In this document: positions 8,405 through 51,699 of the stretch, one piece after another
How positions within the stretch are numbered: the stretch's first letter is position 1
Layout: every line of letters begins with the position of its first letter
Assembly: GCA_036388415.1 (NCBI GenBank)
Contig: DASVRW010000002.1
Location: 353,396 to 417,395 of the forward strand
Length of the DNA stretch: 64,000 nt
Direction: 5' to 3'
Origin: Candidatus Saccharimonadales bacterium
GTDB lineage: Bacteria > Patescibacteriota > Saccharimonadia > Saccharimonadales > UBA4665
Program-made: the position numbers and the translations under genes
The notes under the pieces: generated by a model
The model's database searches: none
What the model saw: only the letters and a program-made list of their open reading frames with translations
Told to the model about the DNA's origin: nothing

Positions 8405-8827
8405 CTACTTGGTTTCTTCAGCTGGCTCAGCAACAGGCGTTTCTTCGGCGACGGGCAATTCATTGACAGCGCGCTTGTCGAAATCAAGGCCAGTCAAGCG
8501 GGCAGCCTTGCCAGTACGCTCACGCATGTACGTAAGGTAGTTACGGCGGACTTTGCTACGCTTCGTCACTTCAACCTGCACAATAAGCGGGCTGTGTAGT
8601 AAGAAGCTCTTTTCGACACCAACGCCGCTGGCAATCCGACGAACAGTGATGCGGCTGGTGTGCGAACCTTTATTGTCGGTACGAATAACCAATCCCTGGA
8701 AGATCTGAACACGCTCTTTGTTGCCTTCGCGAATCTTCTGGTGCACCTTGACGGTATCACCGCTCTGGACGTCAACGACTGCCGGCTTTTTAAATTGACT
8801 TGCAAATGAGTTAACGATTGATTCCAT
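8405..8827 (-). CDS. rplS: 50S ribosomal protein L19 (with acidic C-terminal tail)
   Basis: GDTVKVHQKIREGNKERVQIFQGLVI...RRIASGVGVEKSF..HSP is a typical L19 core. Confidence 0.9.
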   Translation of the reverse strand: MESIVNSFASQFKKPAVVDVQSGDTVKVHQKIREGNKERVQIFQGLVIRTDNKGSHTSRITVRRIASGVGVEKSFLLHSPLIVQVEVTKRSKVRRNYLTYMRERTGKAARLTGLDFDKRAVNELPVAEETPVAEPAEETK

Positions 8828-8891: not shown

Positions 8892-8902
8892 TACTTACGT
8901 AT

Positions 8903-9033
8903 CTAAGTCTCAAAACCTCTCCATGAGCCTCGTCAACCTGTCCGCCCCTAAAATTTTTTATCTTTAGGATAAAACAATTTTGGGGCCGCCCCGCAGGTTG
9001 CCACTCAAGGTAGAGGTTTTAAGGCTCGGGTTT
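8903..9033 (+). repeat. Long-hairpin intergenic repeat, copy A
   Basis: Shares the core CCATGAGCCTCGTCAACCTGTCCGCCCCTAAAATTTT...AATTTTGGGGCCGCCCCGCAGGTTGCCACTCAAGG with copies B and C. Confidence 0.85.
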
Positions 9034-9040
9034 ACCTTAC

Positions 9041-10648
9041 TCAGCCAACAACACGATAGACTTCTTCGAGTGTTGTGTCGCCATTGATGACCTTGAGGAC
9101 GCCGTCCTGCAACATGGTGATCATACCTTCTTCGACAGCCTTTTGCTCAATCATGTCAGTTGTCACTTGTCCAGGCGGCATGCGAAGCAGTTGCTGAACG
9201 CCCGATGTCATCTGCAGTTGCTCACGTATCGGGAACTGGCCGGTATAGCCGTAAGGATTGGCGGGTGACGTACCGGCTTTGTATAGCGTTAGCTGGCTCA
9301 GGTCCGGACGGTCGACACCGGGCGGCAGCGAATCGACGACAGTCTGCAGCTGCGCTCGCAGGCCGTCATCAGGCTGAAAGGCAACTTTGGTAGCGTCGTC
9401 GAGCCGGCGTATCAAGCGCTGGGCCATGATCAGGCGTATCGCCGAAGCAAACAGCGGATTGACACCGACAAAGTCAATCATCCGGGTTAATGCCGCTGCT
9501 GCCGATGAGGCGTGGAAAGTACTGAGGACGAGGTGACCTGTCAGGGCAGCCTGCAGCGCCGTCCGGGCAGTGTCCTGATCGCGGATTTCACCTACCATCA
9601 AGGTGTCCGGATCAAGCCGCAGGACAGCCCGAAGCTTATCGGCAAAGCCGGACGTGTTGTGATCGCCCTGCACCGGTATCTGCACGACGCCTGGAATGTA
9701 ATATTCGACTGGATCTTCTAGAGTTATGATCTTGCGTTCATCGGAGTTAAGCGTCGTTATCAGCGAGTACAAAGTCGTCGTCTTACCGGATCCAGTCGGG
9801 CCCACCACCAGCACCATACCCGTCGGATGGCTGATGATATCGTCGACGACACTGCGCTCACGGACTGACAGCCCGAGGCCGTCCAAATTGAGCATTTCCA
9901 GTTTTAGATTAAACAGGCGCATGACGACGTCCTGTCCGTAAATCGTCGGTACCGTTTCTACGCGAAGATTAACGGTTACTTTTTCGCCAGTTGCCATGGC
10001 ATATTCCTGGTTGATGTGACCGCTCTGCGGGTCGGGTGAAGCTGTCGACATGTTGGCAACAATCGCCATGCTGGACATCAATTGTTTGTATTTGCTAGGA
10101 CTCAGCCGGGCGATGGAATGCAGCACGCCGTCAACCCGAAAGCGGATCCGGACATCATCTTTTTCATTTTCCATGTGAATATCCGAGGCTTTGAGCCGGT
10201 AGGCCTGTTTGACGAGATAGGCTAGAACATCATCTGATAGCACTTGCTCCAAGGTTGCAGATACGCTTTTGATCAGATCGAGGTCTGTCGTCGTACCGAG
10301 CGATACATCTTCGTAGGTAATTTGTTTTGGCGGATTATAAAGCCGTAAGTAATCCCGAAATCCATTTTCAGAGATAATAGCAAAGGTAATGCGCTGACTA
10401 TTGAAATGAGCCTTGATGGCATTCATCGTCTGCTGCGATGTCGTCGTCGTGATACCAAACAGCACGTTTGATTTGTCGGCCTGCAATGGCACGATGCGGT
10501 ATTCACGGATCTGGGGTTCAGTCAGCAAATCTTTGTAAAGTTGCTTATCGGCAATCTTTGACGTATCAACATATGATAGATTAAGTATACGTGCCCGGCG
10601 CTGGGTAGCTAATTCCTCGTCAGATCGTGCGTCTTGGCTCATAACCAT
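9041..10648 (-). CDS. pilB: GspE/PilB-family type IV pilus / type II secretion assembly ATPase
   Basis: Walker A GPTGSGKTTTLYS, LEDPVEY, GEIRD and an N-terminal GspII_E-like region. Confidence 0.8.
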   Translation of the reverse strand: MVMSQDARSDEELATQRRARILNLSYVDTSKIADKQLYKDLLTEPQIREYRIVPLQADKSNVLFGITTTTSQQTMNAIKAHFNSQRITFAIISENGFRDYLRLYNPPKQITYEDVSLGTTTDLDLIKSVSATLEQVLSDDVLAYLVKQAYRLKASDIHMENEKDDVRIRFRVDGVLHSIARLSPSKYKQLMSSMAIVANMSTASPDPQSGHINQEYAMATGEKVTVNLRVETVPTIYGQDVVMRLFNLKLEMLNLDGLGLSVRERSVVDDIISHPTGMVLVVGPTGSGKTTTLYSLITTLNSDERKIITLEDPVEYYIPGVVQIPVQGDHNTSGFADKLRAVLRLDPDTLMVGEIRDQDTARTALQAALTGHLVLSTFHASSAAAALTRMIDFVGVNPLFASAIRLIMAQRLIRRLDDATKVAFQPDDGLRAQLQTVVDSLPPGVDRPDLSQLTLYKAGTSPANPYGYTGQFPIREQLQMTSGVQQLLRMPPGQVTTDMIEQKAVEEGMITMLQDGVLKVINGDTTLEEVYRVVG

Positions 10649-10682
10649 AAGTATAAATTAAAAGCTCGCTGGAGTACATTAA

Positions 10683-11222: not shown

Positions 11223-11308
11223 CGATATTTACAGCCTATAAGCACAAGCTTATTGCTCGTAAACAGCATGCGTGATAGAATTATTGTAGAATACCTAAAA
11301 ACAAATAT

Positions 11309-12199
11309 ATGGCTCTGACAACTCAGCGTAAACCAACCGCCCATCACAAAAAAGCCACCGGCCAGCACCACCGCCGCAGCAAGCACTATCTGAAGGCGTA
11401 TTCGCCGTACCTGCCGCTGCTGCTCGTCGTCCTCATCGGACTAGCTATCAACAGCTTTTGGGCATCACGGACACAGGTCCTCGGTGCTGCGACCACCTTG
11501 TCAGCCAATGAACTATTGCAGGACACCAACATTGAACGTTCACGGCTGCAGCAGCCTGACCTAATCATCAATCCCAAGCTCAATGCCGCTGCCCAGGCCA
11601 AAGCCAATGACATGGTGCAGCGTGATTACTGGTCGCACAATGCGCCGGACGGCACGACGCCGTGGAGTTTTGTCGAGAGCAGTGGCTATGAGTATCAGGC
11701 TGCTGGCGAAAATCTGGCATTTGGATTTATGAACGCTCAGACCATTCTGGCGGGTTGGATGAACAGTCCGGAGCACCGGGCCAATGTCCTAAACAGCAAT
11801 TATGCAGACGTCGGCTTTGGTATTACGACTGCCGAAAACTTCCAAGGACAAGGTCGTACAACCGTCGTCGTGGCTATATATGGCCGACCAATATCAGCAA
11901 ATCTTGGTGTCACGGCTACCGTTAGCGGCACGGAGAGCGCGGCCACAACACAGCCCTACCGCAATGTTTCACGGATTGAGCTACTGACTGGTGGCGTCGC
12001 ACCCTGGAGCTTTGCCCTACTCACGGCCATAACACTGCTGGCGCTGGCTTTCCTGGTATTCCGTCACGCTATCGCCTGGCATCGTATGCTCATCAAAAGC
12101 GAAAACTTCGTACTACACCACAAGACCTTGGATGTTATCGTACTCAGCCTTCTCGTCGGCAGCGTCATACTAACGCGCACAGCTGGTTATATCAACTAG
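11309..12199 (+). CDS. Membrane-anchored CAP/SCP (YkwD-like) domain protein
   Basis: N-terminal TM, then YWSHNAPDG...GENLAFGF...GWMNSPEHRANVLN..YADVGFG, and a C-terminal TM pair. Confidence 0.65.
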   Translation: MALTTQRKPTAHHKKATGQHHRRSKHYLKAYSPYLPLLLVVLIGLAINSFWASRTQVLGAATTLSANELLQDTNIERSRLQQPDLIINPKLNAAAQAKANDMVQRDYWSHNAPDGTTPWSFVESSGYEYQAAGENLAFGFMNAQTILAGWMNSPEHRANVLNSNYADVGFGITTAENFQGQGRTTVVVAIYGRPISANLGVTATVSGTESAATTQPYRNVSRIELLTGGVAPWSFALLTAITLLALAFLVFRHAIAWHRMLIKSENFVLHHKTLDVIVLSLLVGSVILTRTAGYIN

Positions 12200-12213
12200 G
12201 ACAATACCGAAAA

Positions 12214-12345
12214 CTTAGTCTTAAAACCTCAGCTCTAATGTGGCAACCTGTTAGCGTTCTACAAATTATTTCATTCTATTTGATGGAAGATGTCGAGAAC
12301 TAACAGATATGTAAAGCTGATAGGTAGGTTTTGAGATGCAGGTTA
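12214..12345 (-). repeat. Long-hairpin intergenic repeat, decayed copy D
   Basis: Retains GTGGCAACCTG, AAATTATTTCAT and GGTAGGTTTTGAGAT.CAGGT in the same order as copy C. The rest is diverged. Confidence 0.6.
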
Positions 12346-12351
12346 TGTAAC

Positions 12352-15300
12352 CTAGTGGACTTTGACGTTCTCGCGTCCGACGAGTGATTGCAGTCGTTCC
12401 AGTGCCGGCAGTTCTTTGGCCATACCGACAGGCAACTTAATGATTTGCTTTTGATTGTCGGCGCCGAGCACCAGGACTACTTCGGTTGATCCTCGGTGCT
12501 CATCAATGGCTTGTTTGAGCGACATAAGCGTCGCGTTATCATTGGCGCTCAGCAAACGGATATACACTCGTTCAGGAGCTACCGGTGATGGCGGGCCTGA
12601 TTCCTCACCCGAAGTCCGTGTCGGCGCGGCCGCAGCTGCTTTTGCACCAGGGCCTTTCAGCGCGACCAGCTGCTTGCCTTTGAGGGGCTTTGGAATTGCT
12701 TTTTTGCGGCCGCGCGCCTTGTAGGCCTGAGCTTGCTCAAAGGTTATTTCACGGGCATCATCAACTAAAATTTTAAGTTCGTCAGTCAGTTTGCCCTCAC
12801 GGTCCCGGGCATTCACCTTGCCGTGCATCAGGATGATATGATCGCGCTCCCAAATACCAATCGTCTGCTGATAGGTGCTCGGGAATAGAATAACTTCGAT
12901 ATCACCAAACTTGTCCTCAATTTTCACGAACGCCATCTTATCACCCTTTTTGGTGGTAATCTCACGCATGTCGACGACGACGCCGCCAACCGTGACTGAT
13001 TTGCCGTCGTGCGCTGCTTTGAGCTCGGTCAGCGGTACTGTCTGCTCTTCGAGAATATCAGTGTACATATCGAGCGGGTGCTGCGATAAGTACAGTCCGA
13101 GCAGTTCACGCTCCCAAAGTAGCTGTTCGCGGCTGTTGTAGATAGTCGTGGCCGCTTCCAGGTCGAGTTGCGGCTTCAGGTCAATGCCGTCGACTGATTC
13201 GCCAAATAAATCGACCTGGCTGCTGTTTTGAGCTTTCTGGACGCGGTTTGCATAGGCCAGCATCAATTCCAAATTACACATCAGCTTGGAACGGTCGCCG
13301 TAACGATCGAATGCTCCGGCCTTGACAAGGCTTTCCATGGCTTTTTTATTACAGGTTTTGATATTGACGCAGCCGAGAAACTCCTCCAGATCATCAAACT
13401 TGTCGCAGACCTTGCGGGCGCGTAGTATTTCTTCGACAGCTCCGGTACCGACGTTTTTGATTGCCGCCATACCAAACCGAATCGGGGCTAGGCGGTTGTC
13501 CGGATTTTCGGGATCGGGCACAACGGCAAACTCAACGAACGACTCATTAACGTCGGGCGGCAAAACAGCAATTCCCATTTTGTTGCATTCCGATATTTCA
13601 ATCGACAGACGATCGGTATCGTCAAAATCGCTAGTCATTAGCGCCGCCATGAAAGCCGCCGGATAATGCGCCTTGAGGTAGGCTGTTTGATATGAAATCA
13701 TACCGTAGCAAGCGGAGTGCGATTTGTTAAAACAGTAGTCAGCGAAGCCGAGCAGGTCTTTCCAGAACTTTTCTATCACTGGCTTCGGTACGCCGTTGGC
13801 GACGGCACCGTCAATGAATTTGACCTGCATCTTGGCCATAACATCTTTTTTCTTTTTGCCGATTGCCTTACGGAGCGTATCAGCTTCTCCGCCGGTAAAG
13901 CCGCAGACATCACGCGATATACGCATCACCTGCTCCTGGTAGACCAGGACGCCGAATGTTGATCCCAGCGCTCCTTCCATAAGCGGATGGGCGTACACAA
14001 CCGGCTCGAGATTGTTCTTGCGCTTGATGAAGCTATCAGTCAGTCCGGCGCTGAGGGGACCGGGACGATACAAAGCGCCCATGGCGATCACATCGTCAAA
14101 TTCAGTCGCCTTCAGCTCGCGTAAGTAGCGCTTCATGCCACTTGATTCAAACTGGAACACACCGGTGGTATCGCCGCGCCGCAGCAGCTCAAACGTCTTC
14201 TCGTCGTCAAGGGGTAGCGTGTTGATATCTATTTCTTTACCGTACACCTTACGGATAATACGTAGGGCATTATTCATAACTGTTAAGTTAGATAAGCCTA
14301 AAAAGTCCATTTTGAGCAAGCCGAGTTCCTCGATTGGATCTTTGGAATACTGTGTTGATACAACGCCTTTTTGGGCCATTTCAAGTGGCGCAAATTTGAC
14401 GATATCGTCAGGAGCGATCACCACGCCACAAGCATGGACACCATGCGAGCGGATCGTACCTTCAACACGCACCGCCAGATCAAATACCCGATGTGCGACT
14501 TCGTTTGTCTCATATTCTTTCTTAAGATCAGCATCAGCTGCTATAGATTTCTCGAGTGGGATGTGACGGCCCTGCACGGGTGCGGGGACCATCTTTGACC
14601 AGCGATCAGCCTCGGCGTATGGCACCTGCAGCACCCGGGCAACATCGCGGACAGCATTACGGGCAGCCATGGTACCGAACGTGGCAATATTTGATACCCG
14701 CTCAGCGCCGTATTTGTCGGAACAATACTGTATCACCTCATCGCGGCGGGTGTCCTGAATGTCTATGTCGATATCAGGCATACTGATACGGTCAGGATTC
14801 AGAAAACGCTCGAACAAGAGATCGTACAGCAGCGGATCCAGCTCAGTGATGCGCAGCGCATAGGATATGATGGAGCCTGCCGCAGAGCCTCGGCCAGGAC
14901 CAAACACAATCCCCTGGTCTTTGCCCCAATTCATAAAATCGGCAATAATGAGGAAGTAACCATTGAAACCCATCTGTTCTATAACGCTGAGTTCGTACTC
15001 AGCACGCTTCAGCACCGGAGCCGACAACGAGGCTTTAATCTCATCTGTCGACAGGGCCTTGGCGGCTTCATTTGTTAGGCCGTTGTAACGCATTGTTAAG
15101 CCCTGATAGACTGTCTCGTCGAGGTAGCTTTTTTCGGTCATGCCTGCAGGCACGGGAAATTTCGGAATCAATATGCCGCCGAGTTCTATCTCGACATTGC
15201 AGCGGTCAGCAATCGTCCGCGTATTGCGGATAACCTCGGGATGTTCAGGGCCCCATCGCTTGATAAGCTCGTTTGGGTCTTCGACGTGCAGCGGATAATC

Positions 15301-16092
15301 TTTGAGCGACATGCGCTTTTCATCACTCAGAAACGAGCCAGTCCCGACACAGAGTAGAATCTCGTGAGCGTCCTGATCTTCGTGCTTCAAATAGTGGGCG
15401 TCGCAGGTCAGCGCAACCTCTATACCAAGCTCTTTACCCATTTTGAGCACCTGTTTGTTGATGTTGCCTTGTTCGACACTCGGCAGTGGATTATCCGGGT
15501 GTCCATGGTCTTGGATTTCCAGATAATAGCGGTCACCAAAGATGCTTTTGTACCATTTGGCGATTTCGTAAGCTTTTTCAGTCTGACCCTCTTTAAACGC
15601 GTTCCCGACCTCACCACCCATGCAGGCGCTGAGTACGATGAGCCCTTCGTTGTACTTCTCAAGCAGCTCGTGGTCGATACGCGGATGGTAGTAAAATCCC
15701 TGCAAATTGGCTACTGTCGAAAGTTTCATCAGGTTTTGATAACCCTTGTGGTTCATAGCGAGCAAAATCAGGTGAAAACGCTGTTTGTCCTTTTGCGGAT
15801 CCTTGTCGGTATGACGCCTCGAGGCCACATAGGTTTCAAGGCCAATAATCGGATTGATGCCGGTAGCTTTGCCGGTTTTATAGAAGTCAATTGCCCCGGA
15901 TAGCGTTCCGTGATCCGTCATGGCGACAGATGTCATGCCCTGTTCTTTGACATAATCAAATAGCGCCGGCAGCTTCGTGAGACCGTCGAGCAGACTGTAC
16001 TGCGTGTGATTATGTAGATGCACGTAATCACTAGGACTGAGTGGATTGACTGTGTCAGCCGCCATATTGTTACCCTTTATGTTTGTACTCAT
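12352..16092 (-). CDS. dnaE: DNA polymerase III alpha subunit
   Basis: 1246-aa ORF with PHP domain HLHNHTQYSLLDG, a polymerase core and an OB fold (VTVGGVVVDMREITTKKGDKMAFVKIEDKFG). Confidence 0.92.
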   Translation of the reverse strand: MSTNIKGNNMAADTVNPLSPSDYVHLHNHTQYSLLDGLTKLPALFDYVKEQGMTSVAMTDHGTLSGAIDFYKTGKATGINPIIGLETYVASRRHTDKDPQKDKQRFHLILLAMNHKGYQNLMKLSTVANLQGFYYHPRIDHELLEKYNEGLIVLSACMGGEVGNAFKEGQTEKAYEIAKWYKSIFGDRYYLEIQDHGHPDNPLPSVEQGNINKQVLKMGKELGIEVALTCDAHYLKHEDQDAHEILLCVGTGSFLSDEKRMSLKDYPLHVEDPNELIKRWGPEHPEVIRNTRTIADRCNVEIELGGILIPKFPVPAGMTEKSYLDETVYQGLTMRYNGLTNEAAKALSTDEIKASLSAPVLKRAEYELSVIEQMGFNGYFLIIADFMNWGKDQGIVFGPGRGSAAGSIISYALRITELDPLLYDLLFERFLNPDRISMPDIDIDIQDTRRDEVIQYCSDKYGAERVSNIATFGTMAARNAVRDVARVLQVPYAEADRWSKMVPAPVQGRHIPLEKSIAADADLKKEYETNEVAHRVFDLAVRVEGTIRSHGVHACGVVIAPDDIVKFAPLEMAQKGVVSTQYSKDPIEELGLLKMDFLGLSNLTVMNNALRIIRKVYGKEIDINTLPLDDEKTFELLRRGDTTGVFQFESSGMKRYLRELKATEFDDVIAMGALYRPGPLSAGLTDSFIKRKNNLEPVVYAHPLMEGALGSTFGVLVYQEQVMRISRDVCGFTGGEADTLRKAIGKKKKDVMAKMQVKFIDGAVANGVPKPVIEKFWKDLLGFADYCFNKSHSACYGMISYQTAYLKAHYPAAFMAALMTSDFDDTDRLSIEISECNKMGIAVLPPDVNESFVEFAVVPDPENPDNRLAPIRFGMAAIKNVGTGAVEEILRARKVCDKFDDLEEFLGCVNIKTCNKKAMESLVKAGAFDRYGDRSKLMCNLELMLAYANRVQKAQNSSQVDLFGESVDGIDLKPQLDLEAATTIYNSREQLLWERELLGLYLSQHPLDMYTDILEEQTVPLTELKAAHDGKSVTVGGVVVDMREITTKKGDKMAFVKIEDKFGDIEVILFPSTYQQTIGIWERDHIILMHGKVNARDREGKLTDELKILVDDAREITFEQAQAYKARGRKKAIPKPLKGKQLVALKGPGAKAAAAAPTRTSGEESGPPSPVAPERVYIRLLSANDNATLMSLKQAIDEHRGSTEVVLVLGADNQKQIIKLPVGMAKELPALERLQSLVGRENVKVH

Positions 16093-16188
16093 TATAAGAG
16101 CTGGCGCCGATTCAAGCGAGCATACAATTTACAACATGCACATCAAATGGCCCGGCACATAGATAGCAACGGTTCAAAATTGGTAGAA

Positions 16189-16611
16189 CTACTTCTTTTT
16201 CAGATATGTTTTCATGGCTTTGATGGCTTTGGACGCTTCACTGACGGCCGTATCTAGGTCGTGGTCATTAGCGTTTCCATCATGCAAGGCACTGAGGATT
16301 TCACGCGCCTTCTGGCGGGTCCGTGATGCTCTATGTACTATCTCGCCCTCCAGGGCAACTTCGTGTTTTTGTCTAGAAGAATGCTTTTCGTCGTGCTTGA
16401 TTTTGCTTTCGGCCTCACCAAGCAAATGATTGAGTTCTGTATGCAATTGCTTGAGCTGTTTTTCGGCCTTGGCAATGCTGCTATCGCGGACGCTGCGAAT
16501 GCTGCTCCGTGTATCGCTACCGCTTTTTGGAGCGGTCAAAATACCAGCTACGTAGCCGACCGCACCAGCTACAATTGTCCCAAGAGCGATCCGTTTTGCT
16601 TTACCATTCAT
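16189..16611 (-). CDS. YtxH-domain protein
   Basis: N-terminal GAVGYVAGILTAPKSGSDTR followed by helical repeats. Confidence 0.6.
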   Translation of the reverse strand: MNGKAKRIALGTIVAGAVGYVAGILTAPKSGSDTRSSIRSVRDSSIAKAEKQLKQLHTELNHLLGEAESKIKHDEKHSSRQKHEVALEGEIVHRASRTRQKAREILSALHDGNANDHDLDTAVSEASKAIKAMKTYLKKK

Positions 16612-16634
16612 GCTGTACCTGCCTATGCTTAGAC

Positions 16635-16883
16635 TTATTTAGACTTATTGTGGTGCCGGACAATGTTACTGACCATTTTCAATATAGCCAGTGGACCAGA
16701 AGCGTTCTTGAGCATATCACCGGCAGAACTGACTGAATCAACGGCTTTTTCTGCTCGGTCTGCAATCAGCTTGAGTTGTTTCATCAGCTTGACGGCTAAA
16801 ACAATTACCACAATCAATGCGATGAGGAATAGTGTGAGTGTTGCTGAAACGATGATGACCAGTATTTGTGTGGCGGTATCCAT
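16635..16883 (-). CDS. DUF948-like small membrane protein
   Basis: A single N-terminal TM followed by a helical tail. It is adjacent to the YtxH gene, as in Firmicutes. Confidence 0.5.
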   Translation of the reverse strand: MDTATQILVIIVSATLTLFLIALIVVIVLAVKLMKQLKLIADRAEKAVDSVSSAGDMLKNASGPLAILKMVSNIVRHHNKSK

Positions 16884-17003
16884 AAGTATCTCCTGTAATA
16901 TGTCTAGTTAGTCGAAGGTGCCCTTGTGTATAGTTATACCACGCAGAGTCTACTATTGAAGCAAAATAATTTACACAACATCGTTCAGCTATACAGCCAC
17001 AAT

Positions 17004-17897
17004 CTACATCTTCGAACGCAAATATGCCATGATGTCGTCCTGCATATCGGGCCGTTCAAGTGCAAAGTCGATGACCGTCTTAATGTACTCAAGCTTGTTT
17101 CCCGTGTCGTAATAAGTTCCGTTTTGGACTTCGTATCCATAAAACGGATGACCGTCGGCCATCATGGCTTGCATGGCTGGCTGAATTTGTAACTCAATTT
17201 TACCATCATAATTGGCAGCAGCTTTTTCAAGGTATGGAAATATTTCAGGCACCAACAAGTAACTACTGACACTGGCTAAGTCTGACGGCGCATTGTCCTT
17301 GCCTGGTTTTTCGATTATCTGGCTCATCTTAAGAATACCGTCATGTCCATCGACAGATTCGCCCGCGACAATTCCATAACGCTCGTAATCTTCATCCTTC
17401 TCGACACGAATACAGCTAAGTACCGATCCTTGTAGTTCATCGTATAGATTAATGAGCTGCGTGAATCGACTTGGACTGGCCCGGAAAAAGTCATCGGCAT
17501 AAGTATAAATGAACGGTTCATCACCTATGAGGTGCGCCGAATTGAGCAGTGGCGTCGCATTGCCGTATGGACCTTTTTGACGCAAGTAAATAAAATTGGC
17601 CAGGCCGGCAATAGCTTCAATCTCTTCGATATAGTGTTTTTTGCTCTCACCGCCAGCGATTAGGTTTGCCAGCAAATCCTGGCTTGGCATATCAAAGTGG
17701 TCTTCGATAGCCCGCTTGTTGCTGCTACCGACAATGATAATATCTTTGATACCTGCAGCAACTAAATCTTCAACGATATATTGGATAATCGGTTTATCAA
17801 CCAGTGGCAGCATTTCCTTGGGCATAGCCTTAGTCTGCGGCAAGAAGCGAGTACCGAATCCGGCTGCTGCAATGACTGCTTTTGTTACTTTGGCCAT
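17004..17897 (-). CDS. galU: UTP--glucose-1-phosphate uridylyltransferase
   Basis: AVIAAAGFGTRFLPQTKAMPKEMLPLVDKPIIQY is the canonical GalU N-terminus. Confidence 0.88.
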   Translation of the reverse strand: MAKVTKAVIAAAGFGTRFLPQTKAMPKEMLPLVDKPIIQYIVEDLVAAGIKDIIIVGSSNKRAIEDHFDMPSQDLLANLIAGGESKKHYIEEIEAIAGLANFIYLRQKGPYGNATPLLNSAHLIGDEPFIYTYADDFFRASPSRFTQLINLYDELQGSVLSCIRVEKDEDYERYGIVAGESVDGHDGILKMSQIIEKPGKDNAPSDLASVSSYLLVPEIFPYLEKAAANYDGKIELQIQPAMQAMMADGHPFYGYEVQNGTYYDTGNKLEYIKTVIDFALERPDMQDDIMAYLRSKM

Positions 17898-17948
17898 ATC
17901 GTATCTCCTGTTTACCGTTTACGCCTATGCAGTATAGCAACCTCTCTG

Positions 17949-19478
17949 CTATGCATCCATCCCCAGCTGTTTTTTTATGAGTTTTTGGGCAAGAGCTGGG
18001 TTCGCTTTGCCTGTCGAGCGTTTCATAACCTGGCCGACTAAGAAGCCAATCGCCTTCATTTCACCACCACGTACGTCATCAGCTGCTTTGACATTTTCTT
18101 TCAGGACAGCATCAACGATCTCCAGAATCGCAGTCTCATCTGACTCCTGTATGAAGCCTTGCTGCTCGGCAAAAGTGGCAATATCTCCGGGCAATACATC
18201 CGCGGCCAGCAAAACGAGCGTCAGAGCCTTGGCGTTTGTCGAACTTAGCTTACCGCTGCCGACTAAATCGGCAATCTTTCGGTACATTACAGCACGGTCC
18301 ACTCGCACCAGCGATACGTCACGGTTCACCGCCCCAGTCATTTCATCCGAATCATTGTGCGTCTCTGGCTTGCCAGCTTCCCGAACATAGGGAATATCAA
18401 TATTAACCAGCCAGTTGGCAAGCTGTCTGGCATAGGCCTGGTCATCGAGCGATTGTTCAAGGAGCGGTAAATAATTCTCTGCGAAGTACTCCACCTGTGC
18501 GTCGAGCAATGTTTCAATCTGCGCCGTGTTCAGTCCGAGTTCACCAAGACGGCTGCGCCATGCATCTGGCATTGGCGGCATTGCAGCCCGAATCTGCTCA
18601 ATGTATTCGGCAGTCAGCACGATAGGCGGCAGATCGGGATCTGGAAAATAGCGGTAATCATGCGAATCTTCCTTGGACCGCTGGCTAAACGTTACCTGGC
18701 GGGCATCGTCCCAGCCACGCGTCTCCTGATCAATCACCCCACCTTTTTCCAAAACTTCAATCTGGCGGTTCGTTTCATAATCTACCACTTTTTCAACTGC
18801 CCGGAAGCTATTGATGTTTTTGGTTTCCGTCCGCGTGCCCAGCTGGTCGGAGGTACTGACGCTAACATTGACATCAAATCGCATATTTCCATAGTATAAA
18901 TTGGCGTCAGACACATCTGCATACTTCATACGGAGGTATAGTTCGTGAGCGTAGGCTTTGGCCTCAACCGCCGAATGCATATCCGGCTCTGAAACGATTT
19001 CCAGCAGCGGCGTACCGGCGCGGTTCAGGTCGACCAAGCTGTAATCTTTGCCTGCAGGATGCGTACTTTTACCTGCATCAGCCTCGAGATGAGCCCGTGT
19101 TATGCCGATGGTTTTTGGCTTGCCGTCGATGGTAACCGTAATAGAACCGCCCAGAATTATCGGTTCGTCGAACTGGGTAATCTGGTAACCGAGCGGCAAA
19201 TCAGGATAAAAATAATGTTTCCGATCGAATTTACTGAACTTCTGTGGCTCCGAGCCGAGCGCAAATGCCGCCCGGGCAGCGAGATGTACTGCCTCGGCAT
19301 TGAGTACTGGCAGTGCACCAGGCAGGCCGAAGCATAGGTGACTGACGAGCGTATTTGGCGGCGCCTCGCGGGCATCGTTACCGACAGCAGCAAACAGTTT
19401 TGATTTTGTCTTGAGCTGGACATGACACTCAATGCCGATCGTAATTGTATATTTGTCGCGAGTTTCTGATGTAATCAT
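17949..19478 (-). CDS. gatB: Asp/Glu-tRNA amidotransferase subunit B
   Basis: IGIECHVQL..KSKLF, DLNRAGTPLLEIVSEPD and a C-terminal GatB_Yqey tail. Confidence 0.92.
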   Translation of the reverse strand: MITSETRDKYTITIGIECHVQLKTKSKLFAAVGNDAREAPPNTLVSHLCFGLPGALPVLNAEAVHLAARAAFALGSEPQKFSKFDRKHYFYPDLPLGYQITQFDEPIILGGSITVTIDGKPKTIGITRAHLEADAGKSTHPAGKDYSLVDLNRAGTPLLEIVSEPDMHSAVEAKAYAHELYLRMKYADVSDANLYYGNMRFDVNVSVSTSDQLGTRTETKNINSFRAVEKVVDYETNRQIEVLEKGGVIDQETRGWDDARQVTFSQRSKEDSHDYRYFPDPDLPPIVLTAEYIEQIRAAMPPMPDAWRSRLGELGLNTAQIETLLDAQVEYFAENYLPLLEQSLDDQAYARQLANWLVNIDIPYVREAGKPETHNDSDEMTGAVNRDVSLVRVDRAVMYRKIADLVGSGKLSSTNAKALTLVLLAADVLPGDIATFAEQQGFIQESDETAILEIVDAVLKENVKAADDVRGGEMKAIGFLVGQVMKRSTGKANPALAQKLIKKQLGMDA

Positions 19479-19921
19479 TTGAGAGCCCCTAAATCTTTGA
19501 GAGCTTGCCGGATGCCGATGAGTGCATCTTTGACATCTCGCTCAGTCAAATTGTCATATTGCTCATGCACCAGCTTGTTACGTAGCTTGTGCGCATACCA
19601 GACACCATCGTTGTCACTGAGATCGCGTTGCACGGTAACCAAGCGTTCTCCCATCGTTTTGCCTTTGACCCGGCTTTTCTTAAGTGCCTCGTCGAGCAGT
19701 TTATCGGCGTCTATAATAGCCAGCGGCCAGGTCGCCCTGCTGGCGCACTTTTTTTGTATCACTTGCCATTTTTCCGCAAAGTAACCGGTGTTCAGACGGC
19801 TGCCAGTCCGGCGGCGCACCAGCCAACTGGCGCCGAATATCAGCACCAGCAGAATGACGATAGCTATACCGGCCATAATCAAATTGGTTGTGCCAATATC
19901 AATCAGTCCTGATGGATTCAT
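19475..19921 (-). CDS. Small membrane-anchored protein with HEPN-like Rx4H motif, embedded in gatCAB
   Basis: 148-aa ORF with one N-terminal TM and a helical domain ending in WYAHKLRNKLVHE. ATGA start/stop overlaps with both gatA (19918-19921) and gatB (19475-19478). Confidence 0.6.
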   Translation of the reverse strand: MNPSGLIDIGTTNLIMAGIAIVILLVLIFGASWLVRRRTGSRLNTGYFAEKWQVIQKKCASRATWPLAIIDADKLLDEALKKSRVKGKTMGERLVTVQRDLSDNDGVWYAHKLRNKLVHEQYDNLTERDVKDALIGIRQALKDLGALK

Positions 19922-21366
19922 CGTACAAGCTCCTCAGTTTGGCGAGCAAACGCTAGAAGTGACCGGTCTGCACGCTGGGCGGCCATGAGCTGCACGCCCA
20001 CCGGCAAGCCGTCAACCATACCAACCGGTACTGAAATCGCCGGTATCCCGGCCAGGCTTGGGCCGACAGTCATAACGTCTGATAGATACATCTGCAAAGG
20101 ATCATTGCTGTTTTCGCCGATTTTAAATGCCGTCGTCGGCGCCACTGGGCCCAACAAGAAATCAACCTGTTCAAAGGCTATGGCAAATTCGTTGATAATT
20201 TTGGTGCGGACAGTCTGCGCCTTTTTATAGTAGGCGTCGTAATAGCCGCTACTGAGTACATAGGTGCCAATCATAATCCGGCGTTTCGCTTCTTTTCCGA
20301 AACCCGTGCCGCGTGACCCGCGGTAGCTATCCTCGAGCGTCGTCGCATCTGGATAACTATAGCCGAAGCGTTGGCCGTCATAGCGGCTCAAGTTACTGCT
20401 GATTTCAGCTGGCACGATGATGTAATACACTGCCAGCGACAAAGGCAGCGATGGCAGGCTGAGTTCCTGAACGTCGGCACCGGCGGTACGAAGCCGTTGC
20501 AATACGTCATCAATAATCTGGCTGACACCGGGTTGAAGGCTGTCACCCATATATTCGCGGATAACTCCGATTTTCTTGCCAGTAAGATTGATGTCTCCTG
20601 GCAGATCAGCATAGCCGGCAGCATCCCGCTCGATGGTTGTACTATCAAGTTGATCCCTGCCAGCAATAACGTCAAACACGAGAGCGCTGTCAGCGACCGT
20701 TCGTGTCAGTGGACCCATCACATCGGTACTACTGGCCATCGCCACCACACCGGAGCGTGACGTCAGGCCGTATGTCGGCTTGAATCCAACGCATCCACTA
20801 AAGCTGGCTGGCTGGCGGATCGAACCACCCGTGTCGGTACCAAGCGCAAACGGCGCCATGTCGAGCACGACTGCTGCTGCTGAACCGCCGGACGATCCAC
20901 CAGGTACCCGAGCCATGTCATGTGGGTTTTTCGTCGGATAAAAATCGCTGTTTTCAGTCGAACCGCCGTGCGCAAAGGCGTCCATATTAGCCTTGGCAAC
21001 ACATATCGCTCCTTCAGCTTCCAGTCGCTCGATAACGGTCGACTGATACGGCGCCGTGAAGCCACGCAGAATATTGCTGGCGGCTGTTGTCTCGGCCCCA
21101 AAAACCAGATAATTATCTTTGGCAATAAACGGAACGCCAGCCAGACGACCGGCGGGTTTCGAGGCAGCTATGTCTGCATCAATCTGCCGTGCCCGCGTGC
21201 GTGCCCTATCTTCGGTTGTCGCGATGATCGCATTGTACTGCTGGTGCTCAGCAATCGTGCGCAGAGACTGTTCGACCAAGTCAACTGCCCGTAGCTCGCC
21301 CGAGACAACTTTAGCCGCAATCTCCGCTATAGGCAGCCATTGTGAAGCAGTTGTAGCAGCGCTCAT
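19918..21366 (-). CDS. gatA: Asp/Glu-tRNA amidotransferase subunit A
   Basis: Amidase signature GGSSGGSAAAV and GTDTGGSIRQPA. Confidence 0.92.
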   Translation of the reverse strand: MSAATTASQWLPIAEIAAKVVSGELRAVDLVEQSLRTIAEHQQYNAIIATTEDRARTRARQIDADIAASKPAGRLAGVPFIAKDNYLVFGAETTAASNILRGFTAPYQSTVIERLEAEGAICVAKANMDAFAHGGSTENSDFYPTKNPHDMARVPGGSSGGSAAAVVLDMAPFALGTDTGGSIRQPASFSGCVGFKPTYGLTSRSGVVAMASSTDVMGPLTRTVADSALVFDVIAGRDQLDSTTIERDAAGYADLPGDINLTGKKIGVIREYMGDSLQPGVSQIIDDVLQRLRTAGADVQELSLPSLPLSLAVYYIIVPAEISSNLSRYDGQRFGYSYPDATTLEDSYRGSRGTGFGKEAKRRIMIGTYVLSSGYYDAYYKKAQTVRTKIINEFAIAFEQVDFLLGPVAPTTAFKIGENSNDPLQMYLSDVMTVGPSLAGIPAISVPVGMVDGLPVGVQLMAAQRADRSLLAFARQTEELVR

Positions 21367-29757: not shown

Positions 29758-29995
29758 GCTGATTCCGCCATTTAGATATCATGACAATCAACCCAATAGT
29801 TATAAGCAACCATATTAATGAAAATATTATTGCCGTCATATGCGACGGGTTGCCACAGGCGCTCTGGCTGGCCGTTAACGAAGATGTGCATGGTCTAAAG
29901 CTAAGAAATACCTGTAGAAGTAGGTATGCCGCAAACAACCAAACAGCTCCTAACACTGTCGTGGAAATTGCTAATATGGTTTTTTTGTTATTCAT
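29750..29995 (-). CDS. Candidate 81-aa two-TM micro-protein
   Basis: MNNKKTILAISTTVLGAVWLFAAYLLLQ...IIFSLIWLLITIGLIVMI. ATG 29995 is preceded by GGAG and overlaps the tkt-N stop by 8 nt. Confidence 0.45.
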   Translation of the reverse strand: MNNKKTILAISTTVLGAVWLFAAYLLLQVFLSFRPCTSSLTASQSACGNPSHMTAIIFSLIWLLITIGLIVMISKWRNQHA

Positions 29996-30854
29996 GCTCG
30001 CTCCGGATGCGTCCGCCGAGGGTACGGAGTTCTTTGAGTGCTTCGACGGCCTGTTCATGGTTTGGTGGCATGCCGTGCCAGCGGAAATCGTATTCCATAA
30101 AGTCGACGCCCTTGCCTGGGATAGTGTGCGCGATGATCATCACCGGCTTTTCGACAATTGCCCGTCCCATGGCGCAAGCATCAATGACGGCCTCGATGTC
30201 ATTGCCGTTGATTTCGATAACGTGCCAGCCGAACGCTTCCCATTTGCCGCGAAGATCTTCCAGTGGCATGACAGACTCAGTCGGGCCATCGATTTGGATG
30301 TTGTTGCGGTCAATAATACCAATAATATTATGCAGTTTTTCTTTGCCGGCCAGCATAGCCGCTTCCCATATATTGCCTTCGTTCAACTCACCGTCACCCA
30401 TTACGACATAGACCCAGCGGTGCGTGACCTTGTCCATGCGCATGGCAAGAGCGATACCTGCTGCCTGCGACAAGCCGCATCCTAGTGGCCCACTAGTAGT
30501 TTCCATGCCAGGCAGCCGTGTCCGCTCAGGATGACCCTGCAAACGTGAGCCGAGCTTCCGGAGCGTCATGAGTTCTTTTTTATCAAAATAGCCGGCTTCG
30601 GCCATGGTAGCATATCGTACCGGGACGCAGTGGCCGTTGCTCAGTAGCAATATATCGCGTTCGTCCCAATCGGGATGCTTGGGATCGTGTTGCAGTACAT
30701 CAAAATACAAAGCCGTAAATATATCGGCCAGTCCGAGCGGTCCGGCCGAATGCCCACTGCCTGCATGTTCGAGCATACGGATAATATCACTGCGGATATC
30801 TACCGCTTTATGTTCCAGCCAATCAATCGAGTAAGTTTTTTTCATTCTGCTCAT
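29988..30854 (-). CDS. Transketolase, N-terminal (TPP-binding) subunit
   Basis: GSGHSAGPLGLADI, GDGELNEGNIWEA and IIDRN motifs. An alternative start ATG 30845 is possible. Confidence 0.88.
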   Translation of the reverse strand: MSRMKKTYSIDWLEHKAVDIRSDIIRMLEHAGSGHSAGPLGLADIFTALYFDVLQHDPKHPDWDERDILLLSNGHCVPVRYATMAEAGYFDKKELMTLRKLGSRLQGHPERTRLPGMETTSGPLGCGLSQAAGIALAMRMDKVTHRWVYVVMGDGELNEGNIWEAAMLAGKEKLHNIIGIIDRNNIQIDGPTESVMPLEDLRGKWEAFGWHVIEINGNDIEAVIDACAMGRAIVEKPVMIIAHTIPGKGVDFMEYDFRWHGMPPNHEQAVEALKELRTLGGRIRSEHE

Positions 30855-30855
30855 G

Positions 30856-30864
30856 ATTATACCA
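30856..30864 (-). promoter_or_regulatory. Extended -10 element TGGTATAAT abutting the transketolase start
   Basis: Minus strand reads TGGTATAAT-C-ATG. The -10 ends 1 nt before ATG 30854 and 10 nt before ATG 30845. Confidence 0.4.
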
Positions 30865-30889: not shown

Positions 30890-31020
30890 AACCTAAACCT
30901 CAAAACCTACCCATGAGCCTCGTCAACCTGTCCGCCCCTAAAATTTTTCATCTTCGATGAAATAATTTTGGGGCCGCCCCGCAGGTTGCCACTCAAGGTG
31001 TAGGTTTTGAGGTTTAGGTT
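30890..31020 (+). repeat. Long-hairpin intergenic repeat, copy B (best preserved)
   Basis: The outer 21 nt AACCTAAACCTCAAAACCTAC pair perfectly with GTAGGTTTTGAGGTTTAGGTT. The inner arms pair imperfectly and the apical stem is TCATC/GATGA. Confidence 0.9.
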
Positions 31021-31047: not shown

Positions 31048-31689
31048 TTAATGAGCAGGCTGAGCAACCAGCTGCGCGAGCAATTCGTAGGCGGCATGCG
31101 CATCCTGGCTGCGCTGAATATAGCCACCGACGTTGAGTACGTCGACCCCGCCCGCAGCCAGTTGACAGATATTCTGGTCGTTGATGCCGCCGTCCCAACC
31201 GATCTCAAGCGTTGGCTTAGCAGCCCGCAGCTGCTGGACTTTGTCGAGTAAACGCAGGTCAGCCGTGCCACCAAAGTAGCCGAGCTTTCCGGAAAATATC
31301 AGTACATGATCTATAATATCGATGGCTGGAAGTATAGTTTCGACGGACGTATCCTGCAGGAGTGCGACGCCGGTTTCTATACCATGCTTATGGAGCGTAT
31401 CGGCAAACGCCACAAAATCTCCTTCAGCCTCCGCATGGACAATGACCATCTGCGGTCCCAGCACGCGGTATAGCTGCGTATGCTCAAATGGATTCTTAAG
31501 CATGACGTGCAGATCAGCCCGCACGCCGCCTGGCCACCAGATCTGATCCAGATCGAGTAGTTTATTTGGCGCCAGCACTCCGTCGGATACATCGATATGA
31601 ATCCGTGGCGCAAAGTCGGCAATGCGCTCAATCTGCGCCCGGTACAAATGGGCGTTTTCGGCTGTAACCGTTGGGCAAATACTGACCAT
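31048..31689 (-). CDS. rpe: Ribulose-phosphate 3-epimerase-family protein (divergent)
   Basis: IHIDVSDG..APN, VHAEA and GWDGGIN are TIM-barrel RPE-like motifs, though diverged from canonical H.DvMDG. Confidence 0.7.
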   Translation of the reverse strand: MVSICPTVTAENAHLYRAQIERIADFAPRIHIDVSDGVLAPNKLLDLDQIWWPGGVRADLHVMLKNPFEHTQLYRVLGPQMVIVHAEAEGDFVAFADTLHKHGIETGVALLQDTSVETILPAIDIIDHVLIFSGKLGYFGGTADLRLLDKVQQLRAAKPTLEIGWDGGINDQNICQLAAGGVDVLNVGGYIQRSQDAHAAYELLAQLVAQPAH

Positions 31690-48893: not shown

Positions 48894-50297
48894 ATGCAAG
48901 ATAGCGAAATTCCTGTCGAAACAGATCTTCCTTCAGATGTTTTGAGCAATGATACTATTGGTCAGCCGACCATGTTCGAAGCAGCCGCAGCTGTACTGGC
49001 TGCAAATGACCGCGGCGGCCTATACACTGTTCCCGGCGCAAAATTATACCCACATCAGTGGTTGTGGGACAGCTGTTTTACGGCTATTGGACTACGTCAT
49101 ATCGATAGTGAACGCGCACAAACCGAAATTCTGAGTCTACTACGCGGCCAATGGTCGAACGGTATGGTACCAAACATCATTTTTAATGACGATAAAAAAT
49201 ACGCTACCGACCGCAACGCCTGGCGCAGCTGGGTCAGTCCCTATTCACCAGACAAGGTTGCGACGAGCGGTATCACCCAGCCACCGATGATCGCAGAAGC
49301 TGTCACACGTATCGGCGAACTGATGACCAGTTCTGAGCGGCAAGCATGGTACAAAGAAGTCTGGCCAGCACTTCTGGCATATCATACTTGGCTATACAAT
49401 GACCGCGACCCGCACAACGAAGGTCTTGTCTTACTTATACATCCTTGGGAGGCCGGTATGGACAATACACCGCCGTGGATGGCGTACCTGCACCAGCATC
49501 AGCTGCCCGGCTGGATTCGGGCACTTGAAAAGCTCAAGCTACTCGGTATTGTCGGTAAATTCCGTAGAGACACTCAGACGATACCAATGGACGAGCGCTT
49601 TGAAACAATCGAAATCCTGGCGCTATTTGACACACAGCGTCGGCTGCGACGCAAAGCATACAATATCGACAAGATCATGGACCATTCGCTTTTCCTCATC
49701 GAGGACCTGGCATTTAACTCAATGTTTGTCCGGGCCAACCAACAGCTTCGTGGCATCGCAAAAGCCTTGGGTCGTCAGGTTCCCACGGATCTAGCGACCC
49801 GGATGACAAAGACTGAAGCCGCACTGGAACAATTATGGGACTCGGACAGTAAGCAATATTATTCAAGGGATTTCATAACTCATAATCTTATGAAAGAGAC
49901 GAGCGTCGCAGCATTACTGCCGCTGTATTCAGGCTGCATATCAGCGGAACGTGCCGAACAACTTGTAAAACTGATTGAAAATGACAATCTATACGGTCCA
50001 GCCTTCCCGTTGCCATCAACGGCTGTTGGATCGAAATGGTTTCAGCCCATGCGGTACTGGCAGGGCCCATCATGGATGAATATTAACTGGATGGTTATCG
50101 ATGGTCTGGAGCGCTATGGCTATCACGATCACGCATCAGCGCTGCGTGACATGTCGCTAGAAATGGTCGGCAAGTCTGGCTTCGCTGAATATTTTGACCC
50201 GATCACCGGCGAACCGCTCGGCACTGATAATTTCAGCTGGACGGCGGCTCTGGCAATTGACTTGCTACACCAGGAATCTACCAAACAAAACGGCTGA
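48894..50297 (+). CDS. Six-hairpin glycoside hydrolase (GH63/MGH1-like)
   Basis: YPHQWLWDSCF, HPWEAGMDN and WQGPSWMNINWM motifs resemble GH63-type glucosyl/mannosylglycerate hydrolases. Confidence 0.6.
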   Translation: MQDSEIPVETDLPSDVLSNDTIGQPTMFEAAAAVLAANDRGGLYTVPGAKLYPHQWLWDSCFTAIGLRHIDSERAQTEILSLLRGQWSNGMVPNIIFNDDKKYATDRNAWRSWVSPYSPDKVATSGITQPPMIAEAVTRIGELMTSSERQAWYKEVWPALLAYHTWLYNDRDPHNEGLVLLIHPWEAGMDNTPPWMAYLHQHQLPGWIRALEKLKLLGIVGKFRRDTQTIPMDERFETIEILALFDTQRRLRRKAYNIDKIMDHSLFLIEDLAFNSMFVRANQQLRGIAKALGRQVPTDLATRMTKTEAALEQLWDSDSKQYYSRDFITHNLMKETSVAALLPLYSGCISAERAEQLVKLIENDNLYGPAFPLPSTAVGSKWFQPMRYWQGPSWMNINWMVIDGLERYGYHDHASALRDMSLEMVGKSGFAEYFDPITGEPLGTDNFSWTAALAIDLLHQESTKQNG

Positions 50298-50308: not shown

Positions 50309-50436
50309 CCTGAATCTCGAAACCTACACCTTGAGTGGCAACCTGCGGGGCGGCCCCAAAATTATTTCATCAAAGATGAAAAATTTTAGGGGCGGACAGA
50401 TTGACGAGGCTCATGGGTAGGTTTTGAGATTCAGGT
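50309..50436 (-). repeat. Long-hairpin intergenic repeat, copy C (inverted relative to A/B)
   Basis: Its reverse complement matches copy B across the ~100-nt core with about 3 substitutions. The outer stem is CCTGAATCTCGAAACCTAC/GTAGGTTTTGAGATTCAGG. Confidence 0.9.
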
Positions 50437-50460: not shown

Positions 50461-51699
50461 TTAGTCAGCGCGCACCTCGATAAGTTTTGGAGCTTCCTCA
50501 GCTTCTGCGACTGTTTTGTCAGCCAGTTTCTGTACTTTTGTGAGCTTACTCTCAATCGTGCGCGACTTGCGTGATGCATCCTCGATCGTATTCGTTGCTT
50601 GCAACAATTTTTCATGTGTCTTGTCGAGCAGATCGCCGAATTTACCGAACTCACCTTTGATGCCAGTTAGCAGTTCCCAGACTTCGCTGGTTTGTTCGGC
50701 TATGGCCAGTGTGCGGAAACCAAGCTGGTAGCTGCTGAGGATAGCAGCAATCGTCGTCGGACCGGCCACCGTGACACGGTAGGTTGACTGCAGCATTTCA
50801 AACAGTCCTGGCGTACGCAGCACTTCGGCGTACATGCTCTCGATGGGTACATACAGCACGGCAAAATCAGTCGTTTTGGGCGGCACAATATATTTCTCTT
50901 TGATGCTTTTCGCCTCGGCCTTGATACGGCCGATCAAAGCCTTTTGCTCGATAGCTGCTTGCAACAAATCGCCTTTTTCCTCGGCTGCAACTAAGCGCTG
51001 ATAATCTTCGAGCGGGAACTTCGCATCAATCGGTAAATATATAAATCCTTTGCTGTTACTTTTGTCAGGCAGCTTAATACAGAAATCGACGGCGTCACGG
51101 CTGCCATCACGGACTGTAACCTGTTTTTCATAATGGTCTTTGATGAAAACCTGTTCCAATAAATTTTCCAGCTGTACTTCTCCCCAGGTTCCACGTGTCT
51201 TGACGTTGGTCAGCACCCGTTTGAAATCACTGACATCGGTTGCCAGGTTTTGCATTTCACCAAGTCCCTTATGCACTTGCTCCAAGCGGTCGCTTACCAG
51301 CTTGAATGATTCACCAAGCCGCTTTTCCAGTGTGCTTTGCAGTTTTTCATCAACTGTTGCACGCATTTTTTCCAGTTTTTCGGCGTTATCCTTTTGCAGC
51401 GATTCAAGCCGGCCTTCAACAGTCCGGCGGATCTGCTCCAGCTTTTCGTCGTTTTTATCGCGCATTTGTTCCAACCGTTTGTCGAGCGCTTCGCGTGTTT
51501 GATATATACCGTTGCTAACTTCCGTCCGCAAATCTTTACTAGATGCTGCGTATTCTTGACGGCTGCGAGCAAATTCCTGCGCCATCGTCTGAGTCAGATT
51601 ACGGGTAACGGCTCCATCAATCCCGCCAGCGCGGCGCGTCGCCATATAGAGCAATCCAAGCAAATTTATGACACCGAGTACCACCAGAACATATTCCAT
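50461..51699 (-). CDS. rmuC: DNA recombination protein RmuC
   Basis: N-terminal TM, a long coiled coil and a C-terminal RmuC nuclease-like region (IKLPD...YLPIDAKFPLE). Confidence 0.88.
   Translation of the reverse strand: MEYVLVVLGVINLLGLLYMATRRAGGIDGAVTRNLTQTMAQEFARSRQEYAASSKDLRTEVSNGIYQTREALDKRLEQMRDKNDEKLEQIRRTVEGRLESLQKDNAEKLEKMRATVDEKLQSTLEKRLGESFKLVSDRLEQVHKGLGEMQNLATDVSDFKRVLTNVKTRGTWGEVQLENLLEQVFIKDHYEKQVTVRDGSRDAVDFCIKLPDKSNSKGFIYLPIDAKFPLEDYQRLVAAEEKGDLLQAAIEQKALIGRIKAEAKSIKEKYIVPPKTTDFAVLYVPIESMYAEVLRTPGLFEMLQSTYRVTVAGPTTIAAILSSYQLGFRTLAIAEQTSEVWELLTGIKGEFGKFGDLLDKTHEKLLQATNTIEDASRKSRTIESKLTKVQKLADKTVAEAEEAPKLIEVRAD

Follow-up and report, generated by a model that had tools for sequence, protein, structure and literature searches.

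What kind of element is the ~130-nt hairpin repeat at positions 30890-31020 of the window, by which we mean the whole 64,000-nt stretch of Candidatus Saccharimonadales DNA that was analysed? The first-pass annotation had offered three options, namely a REP- or BOX-like repeat, a RAYT-type substrate or a structured RNA. The repeat is a bacterial interspersed hairpin repeat of a well-known kind, and what is notable about it is its host and its spread across genera. Genomes of CPR/Patescibacteria are very small and densely packed with genes, mobile DNA is thought to be scarce in them, and none of the literature searched describes REP-, REPIN- or MITE-like repeats for Saccharibacteria/CPR.

The host is represented by a metagenome-assembled genome (MAG) of Candidatus Saccharimonadales in a single 1.1-Mb contig (1,098,306 bp in JGI; 1,105,205 bp in ENA). 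The window carries housekeeping genes (nusA, rnhB, rplS, a PilB-like ATPase gene, dnaE, gatCAB, uvrB, pheST and others) together with a glycolysis/pentose-phosphate operon. Four copies of the repeat lie in it, at the positions and on the strands that the first-pass annotation reported (Table 1). Host intergenic gaps usually measure 20-150 nt; four longer ones (213, 152, 193 and 163 nt) hold the elements, which make up most of these unusually long gaps. Copy A is situated upstream of a promoter-like site (8891-8863, -) for rplS (8405..8827, -), while 36 nt separate copy B from the start of a split transketolase N-terminal gene (29988..30854, -). Copy C is 11 nt from the glycosidase gene (48894..50297, +) and 24 nt from RmuC (50461..51699, -), and the neighbours of copy D are the CAP-domain gene at 11309..12199 (+) and dnaE at 12352..16092 (-). 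All copies, including those on the foreign contigs described below, are intergenic and lie 4-27 nt past a stop codon wherever the neighbouring genes are known. Their orientation relative to the upstream gene is mixed, being reversed in A, B and the copy of contig L012 and forward in that of contig L019. No gene is called over the copies; the longest ORF crossing the element has at most 38 codons and the longest internal ORF ~29-37 codons, and since the latter is so short a protein-database search with the translated frames was dropped.

Table 1. Positions in the window of the four copies of the repeat and of the structural parts of copy B.
Feature	Position	Strand	Remarks
Copy A	8903..9033	+	7 nt past the stop of a PilB/T2SSE-like gene (9041..10648, -)
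Copy B, flagged copy	30890..31020	+	27 nt past the stop of an rpe-like gene (31048..31689, -)
Copy C	50309..50436	-	Occupies the gap between the convergent stops of MGH1-like glycosidase and RmuC genes
Copy D, divergent subfamily member	12214..12345	-	Between the convergent stops of a CAP-domain gene and dnaE
Outer stem of B, left arm AACCTAAACCTCAAAACCTACCC	30890..30912	+	Resembles a terminal inverted repeat
Outer stem of B, right arm GGTGTAGGTTTTGAGGTTTAGGTT	30997..31020	+	
Conserved asymmetric core, left half GTCAACCTGTCCGCCCC	30922..30938	+	Kept in copy E as GTCGACCGGTCCGCCCC
Conserved asymmetric core, right half GGGGCCGCCCCGCAGGTTGCCAC	30970..30992	+	Holds the GC-rich mini-palindrome GGGG-CCG-CCCC
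A/T-rich apical stem and loop TTTTTCATC-TTC-GATGAAATAATTTT	30944..30969	+	Most variable part; length change in L019

Copies A, B and C all match a 38-nt core pattern, none with more than one mismatch, against a chance expectation of 0. Over 128 nt the complementarity of B and C is 95%, with 8 differences in the whole element and 2 in the ~100-nt core, where about three had been counted before. Copy A shares 83-86% identity with B and C, and copy D 60-63% with the other copies; the latter is detected by the family profile at E 5e-28 and scores 95 bits with the covariance model. Across copies the element length ranges from 128 to 143 nt.

Every copy forms one end-to-end hairpin, with z-scores from -3.3 to -10.9, in agreement with the first description of the repeat. 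The fold of B has -71.2 kcal/mol (z -10.9), and as single-stranded DNA, under DNA parameters, B takes the same fold with z -11.5; the z-scores of A, C and D are -7.3, -10.6 and -3.3. The outer 21 nt of B pair perfectly, as had been claimed. The outer stem extends over 21-25 bp and contains an invariant CTCAAAACCT/AGGTTTT core, of which the left-arm part is identical in seven copies, while left-arm positions beyond it change in step with the right arm. The mini-palindrome GGGG-CCG-CCCC is present on the right arm only, the left arm having GTCCGCCCC instead, and an unpaired GCCAC bulge occurs in 8/8 copies. Common to all eight copies are only the hairpin and a GGT(T/C)GCCAC segment with this unpaired GCCAC; the GTAG of B and C is not conserved across copies. 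Copy D was initially regarded as decayed. It retains the hairpin through many paired changes, together with the outer stem CTCAAAACCT.../...AGGTTTT and the CAGGTTGCCAC motif, and is without the GC-rich part; a relative whose DnaE is 85% identical has no element at that site, so that D is not just a decayed copy. A K-turn for the internal loop was rejected by eye because tandem G.A pairs are missing, and a reading as DNA uptake sequence was rejected on length and density.

The paired substitutions were assessed in an alignment of seven copies (A3: four from the window and three foreign). RNAalifold recovers 49 pairs in one unbranched hairpin, with standard pairing in 91.8% of the cells. Both sides have changed in 9/49 pairs, compared with 3.5 +/- 1.4 in shuffles; 0/500 shuffles reached nine, and slid controls, in which the partner was moved by 1-3 columns, gave 1-4 such pairs. 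In the outer stem, the pair at columns 12/141 occurs as A-T, C-G and G-C, and the three compensatory examples named in the first-pass annotation are all present in the sequence. The mismatch cells in the + orientation comprise 23 G.U and 11 A.C, with 12 of the G.U cells stemming from two U.G pairs inherited by six copies each. With these two pairs set aside, G.U and A.C are balanced at variable positions (11 vs 11), which indicates that neither RNA strand is favoured. The paired substitutions are thus genuine and leave undecided which molecule folds, RNA or DNA. Palindromes can also acquire paired changes by hairpin-templated repair, without any selection. Such quasi-palindrome correction would give the same pattern. 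The "signature of selection on structure" seen at first is overstated: the paired changes exceed the controls, and they do not tell RNA from DNA. This calls for a general caution, that paired substitutions in a palindromic repeat alone are no evidence of an RNA gene.

Beyond the window, a pattern scan (CTCAAAACCTN{60,90}CAGGTTGCCAC) of 185,579 GTDB representative genomes gave five matches, all of them chance hits in unrelated taxa. The scan of JGI metagenome contigs gave 16, of which three are genuine (L012, L019 and L022, the first two from one JGI sample), and the same scan of viral contigs gave none; the host genome and the source contig were not part of the collections scanned by pattern. 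A BLAST search of B against phages and plasmids likewise produced no match. The foreign copies (L012/L033, L019, L022) have 74-84% identity to those of the window. The organism of L012 belongs to the Saccharimonadales and its ValRS is only 73% identical to that of the host, and L019 and the host share a glutaredoxin-like gene with 60% amino-acid identity. The L012 copy lies 12 nt past the TsaD stop in a gap of ~490 nt, and the L019 copy 4 nt past a stop. Copy A is as distant from B and C as the foreign copies are, and element similarity therefore does not track host divergence. The contig that carries the L022 copy (L022:1-2238) has nearly no long ORFs; at 180-249 (-), ~70 nt from the element, ARAGORN calls a tRNA-like sequence with a two-base anticodon, which Rfam does not confirm as a tRNA.

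A further, divergent copy (E) was recovered with covariance model R1 at L032:12624-12752 (-), corresponding to L033:3552-3680 (-), with 45 bits and z -4.5. It is GC-rich (60%) and lies between the convergent stops of the ValRS and HAD-hydrolase genes. Its outer and apical stems differ from the main type. The core reads GTCGACCGGTCCGCCCC ... GGGGCCGCCCCGCCGGTCGCCAC, compared with GTCAACCTGTCCGCCCC ... GGGGCCGCCCCGCAGGTTGCCAC in the main type, and has two base pairs changed on both sides (AACCTG/CAGGTT to GACCGG/CCGGTC). Eight copies are thus known, four in the window and four elsewhere on Saccharimonadales-like contigs, three of these at 74-84% identity and one divergent. Model R1 with filters off detected no further copy in the window, and neither the 17 kb flanking it nor 22.5 kb of host sequence surrounding valS yielded one; nhmmer and an unfiltered covariance model applied to the window and the relatives returned, beyond E, only weak short hairpins. 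The genome-wide family that four copies in 64 kb had seemed to imply is consequently an extrapolation, as only four copies were found in the ~104 kb sampled (~9% of the 1.1-Mb genome). The family may be small, or it may be collapsed in short-read assemblies. A short-read contig of the same strain (L002, Logan SRR10953937) stops at 11456, 49 nt into copy C, and this break inside a copy suggests that such repeats are probably under-represented in MAGs. No Rfam family was matched at the gathering score in the 64-kb window or the three foreign loci, and in E-value mode one chance-level match appeared (SNORD43, 12.8 bits, E 8.3).

An unrelated 135-nt single hairpin (the F element) was noticed at L039:7633-7767; its outer stem of 25 bp (CTCAAGATGTCCCGTTTTGGTACCC...) pairs perfectly, and the fold has -77.5 kcal/mol and z -8.0. 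It lies between a SpoU-methylase stop and the start of a CAP gene in a relative whose DnaE is 85% identical to that of the host. Its architecture and type of site are as in the flagged family, its sequence is different, and it hints at a recurrence of such hairpin elements in the clade.

Orthologous gene junctions were compared among relatives. The site of copy C (glycosidase-RmuC) is empty in L024 and L027 (77% protein identity), and the sites of A and D (PilB-rplS and dnaE-CAP) are empty in L038, L039 and L040, whose DnaE identities are 87, 85 and 81%. At the D site of L039 the coding ends are recognisable on both sides of a 71-nt gap that lacks the element. Conversely, L012/L033 carry a copy at the TsaD-valS junction, where the host, L034 and L032 have none. 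L032 is a second assembly whose ValRS is identical to that of L033 and whose flanks are ~97% identical, so that the same site is filled in one assembly and empty in the other. Both strains of the L012 organism carry copy E; the host, with a 19-nt gap there, and L034 lack it. No copy is shared at the same site with the nearest relatives examined. The L033/L032 junction is rearranged, the empty allele having 28 private nt that align weakly to the flank and the first element bases, and the difference could equally well stem from an insertion, a deletion or a replacement. Reading these 28 nt as a remnant of the element is possible, not compelling.

The first-pass annotation saw no obvious target-site duplication, and none of 2-9 nt is present at any fixed offset in seven copies, where only chance dinucleotide matches occur, or visible in the filled and empty alleles of L033 and L032. 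It also saw no transposase; none was found among the window ORFs or elsewhere in ~104 kb of host genome, the flanks and the ValRS region included, or beside the foreign copies. The called genes of L036, L037, L030, L019 and L032 include no Y1 (PF01797) transposase. A 166-aa ORF just upstream of the L019 copy was considered as a transposase and rejected, as it encodes a membrane protein without Pfam match. No parent insertion sequence or partial end match was found in the window, 40 kb more of the host and ~200 kb of relatives (~300 kb in all).

We consider it probable, with room for other readings, that the family is short non-autonomous mobile DNA whose unit is one ~130-nt imperfect palindrome, at home in soil and desert Saccharimonadales (TM7, CPR). 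The copies are dispersed over unrelated intergenic sites in both orientations, and those of different lineages are as similar as those within one genome. On the best reading its behaviour is that of small selfish mobile DNA of the REPIN/MITE type, unlike that of a conserved RNA gene. It would be copied in trans by an enzyme encoded elsewhere, which probably reads a folded single strand, with the asymmetric core (GTCNACC.../...GGTNGCCAC) and its GGGGCCGCCCC mini-hairpin as the likely recognition features. HUH/Y1 transposases act in this manner, on REP/REPIN sequences and IS200/IS605 ends as folded single strands. Such an enzyme would explain the missing duplication, the requirement of a hairpin rather than fixed termini, and the equal treatment of both RNA strands. 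The conserved asymmetric internal loop combined with variable ends is likewise unlike the pattern of end-binding DDE transposases and like that of enzymes reading folded single strands. A compact genome would tolerate insertions only between a stop codon and the next promoter, and tolerance restricted to places behind genes would leave the copies where they are now, shortly past the gene ends. Purifying selection, acting on a compact genome, is the simplest explanation for this rule of position behind a stop and ahead of a promoter; a target preference for 3' ends may also account for it. On read-through, the ~60-bp RNA hairpin would probably form a 3'-end barrier or an RNase III substrate, as a side effect and not as the purpose of the family.

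Among known systems, REPINs are extragenic hairpins with frequent compensatory changes and an asymmetric excised unit, for which no target duplication is reported (PMC3116915). They consist of two inverted REP palindromes and a spacer, ~70-110 nt in total, with the most conserved 16-mers at the ends, and are mobilised by RAYT/TnpA-REP in Pseudomonas, E. coli and others (PMC3116915, PMC3337134, PMC8266576). The family described here resembles them as an extragenic non-autonomous unit forming one long hairpin (as single-stranded DNA or RNA), with compensatory changes, no target duplication, an asymmetric unit and a small GC-rich palindrome inside. Against a REPIN-type reading stand the absence of a doublet of two REP palindromes, the restriction of the GC-rich mini-hairpin to one arm and the position of the conserved core in mid-arm; the host also differs, being a CPR bacterium whose 1.1-Mb genome apparently holds few copies, and no RAYT gene was found in ~104 kb of it. 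REPIN systems run to tens or hundreds of copies per genome and have a single-copy RAYT (a Y1 HUH transposase, PF01797) with repeats on either side, whereas four copies were seen here in the ~104 kb sampled. Because the structural definition with two inverted REP palindromes, each a small hairpin bearing a conserved 5' GTAG-type tetranucleotide, fails and a RAYT was not found, we do not file the family as REPIN. Of the three options first offered, a REP-like or RAYT-type substrate nevertheless fits best, with the RAYT itself not found in the regions examined.

Correia elements generate a TA target duplication, carry an IHF site and are defined as a family by their ends. The present repeat is unlike them, since no duplication and no sequence similarity were found and its termini co-vary. 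It is like Correia/NEMIS elements in its size (~100-160 bp) and long inverted termini; these elements of Neisseria are dispersed near genes and co-transcribed, and their RNA hairpin is cut by RNase III (PMC10969869). ERIC/IRU and YPAL elements are ~127-nt imperfect palindromes in transcribed intergenic regions, often at gene 3' ends, and affect mRNA decay (PMC10969869). The likeness to our repeat comprises the imperfect palindrome, the length of ~130 nt and the position behind genes, and does not extend to the sequence. ERIC copies are often found at the same sites across species, unlike those of the flagged family, whose sites are not shared between relatives. With the IS200/IS605-derived PATEs the repeat has in common the lack of a terminal duplication and the dependence on hairpins; PATEs differ in carrying two separate small subterminal hairpins, one at the left and one at the right end, in place of one end-to-end hairpin, and they insert 3' of a fixed tetra- or pentanucleotide; no tnpA or tnpB was seen. 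A TTAC-like tetranucleotide near the ends of A, B, D and the L012 copy is reminiscent of the IS608 target; its offset is not fixed and it may be part of the element end (AGGTTAC). In behaviour the repeat is therefore closest to REPINs, and in size and likely transcript effects to Correia and ERIC elements.

The main rival is a role in cis at the 3' ends of transcripts, for which the hairpin would be selected as a bidirectional terminator without U-tract, as protection from 3' exonucleases or as an RNase III site. We judge this unlikely. All copies with known neighbours follow closely behind a stop codon, and in long gaps they hug it, as seen in copy A (7 nt from the stop vs 75 from the start) and in the copy 12 nt from the stop within the ~490-nt gap of L012; C, D and E occupy gaps between convergent genes. 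The RNA hairpins are very stable, and Correia and ERIC elements affect transcripts in this way (PMC10969869). In positions 1-20000 of the window terminator-like sites are not enriched over a shuffled control (24 vs 19.5 +/- 5.7 expected); by this count, canonical intrinsic terminators may be rare in the host genome. The repeat itself is no canonical terminator, as was recognised at the outset: no T-run follows the hairpin on either strand of copies A-D, and the scan of 1-20000 lists neither A nor D. What speaks against a selected 3'-end role is the distribution: every relative examined lacks the element at the corresponding gene junctions, and it is dispensable between the near-identical strains L033 and L032. 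Furthermore, its orientation to the upstream gene is not fixed, G.U does not exceed A.C on either strand at variable positions, and a terminator needs neither 130 nt at 83-93% inter-copy identity nor a conserved asymmetric internal loop.

The presence/absence polymorphism is also compatible with a classical MITE. Such elements arise by deletion from insertion sequences, keep their terminal inverted repeats and are mobilised by a DDE transposase binding to the ends of the duplex. Its size, within the ~300 bp of a MITE, the inverted termini of 21-25 bp with their invariant CTCAAAACCT/AGGTTTT core, the dispersed intergenic copies and the observation that D shares mainly the termini with other copies all agree with such an origin. 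We regard it as improbable all the same, because seven copies reveal no 2-9 bp target-site duplication at a consistent offset and because ~300 kb of Saccharimonadales DNA contains neither a partner element nor partial end matches. The outermost positions vary with compensation, and copy E retains the internal core with entirely different termini, the opposite of the pattern left by an end-binding transposase.

A multi-copy trans-acting small RNA gene or another stand-alone structured RNA, which the stable fold with covariation and the absence of a known family to assign might suggest, is very improbable, given that a promoter-terminator pair of its own was not seen, a near-perfect 60-bp duplex leaves hardly any single-stranded seed, no strand is preferred, and the copies are missing at the same sites of relatives, one site even being polymorphic between near-identical strains.

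Returning to the non-autonomous mobile repeat, a bolder extension can be formulated, to which we assign a low probability. Saccharimonadales may possess their own class of ~130-nt single-hairpin replicators, comprising the main family, its divergent E-type relatives and the F element, which would be recognised by a conserved asymmetric internal loop instead of their ends and moved without target duplication by an enzyme outside the known RAYT and IS transposases. They would be exchanged between genera, perhaps via the natural competence of these epibionts, and at the RNA level the hairpins would have been co-opted to mark most 3' ends in a lineage lacking canonical terminators.

As a hairpin repeat polymorphic between strains and crossing genera, the element would give a handle on gene flow among uncultivated Saccharibacteria and would serve as a strain marker. 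It would also be a likely cause of contig breaks in short-read Saccharibacteria assemblies, and might modulate the 3' ends of mRNAs from ribosomal and central-metabolism operons.

Some observations concern the neighbouring genes. An extended -10 box TGGTATAAT is located at 30856-30864 (-). It precedes the first ATG of the transketolase N-terminal gene by 1 nt, and there is another ATG 9 nt downstream of the first. Translation may start at this second ATG, on a transcript with hardly any leader, in which case copy B would lie just upstream of the promoter. The interval from the PilB-like gene to rplS contains a WhiB-family gene in two relatives (L038:18423-18910, L039:10018-10499); the host is without it, and element A sits in the gap instead (window 8828-9040). 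Finally, a conserved 108-aa ORF lies between pheS and pheT (window 45783-46109, -), overlapping each by 4 nt; it is kept in all relatives examined and shows a faint MazG match in some of them.
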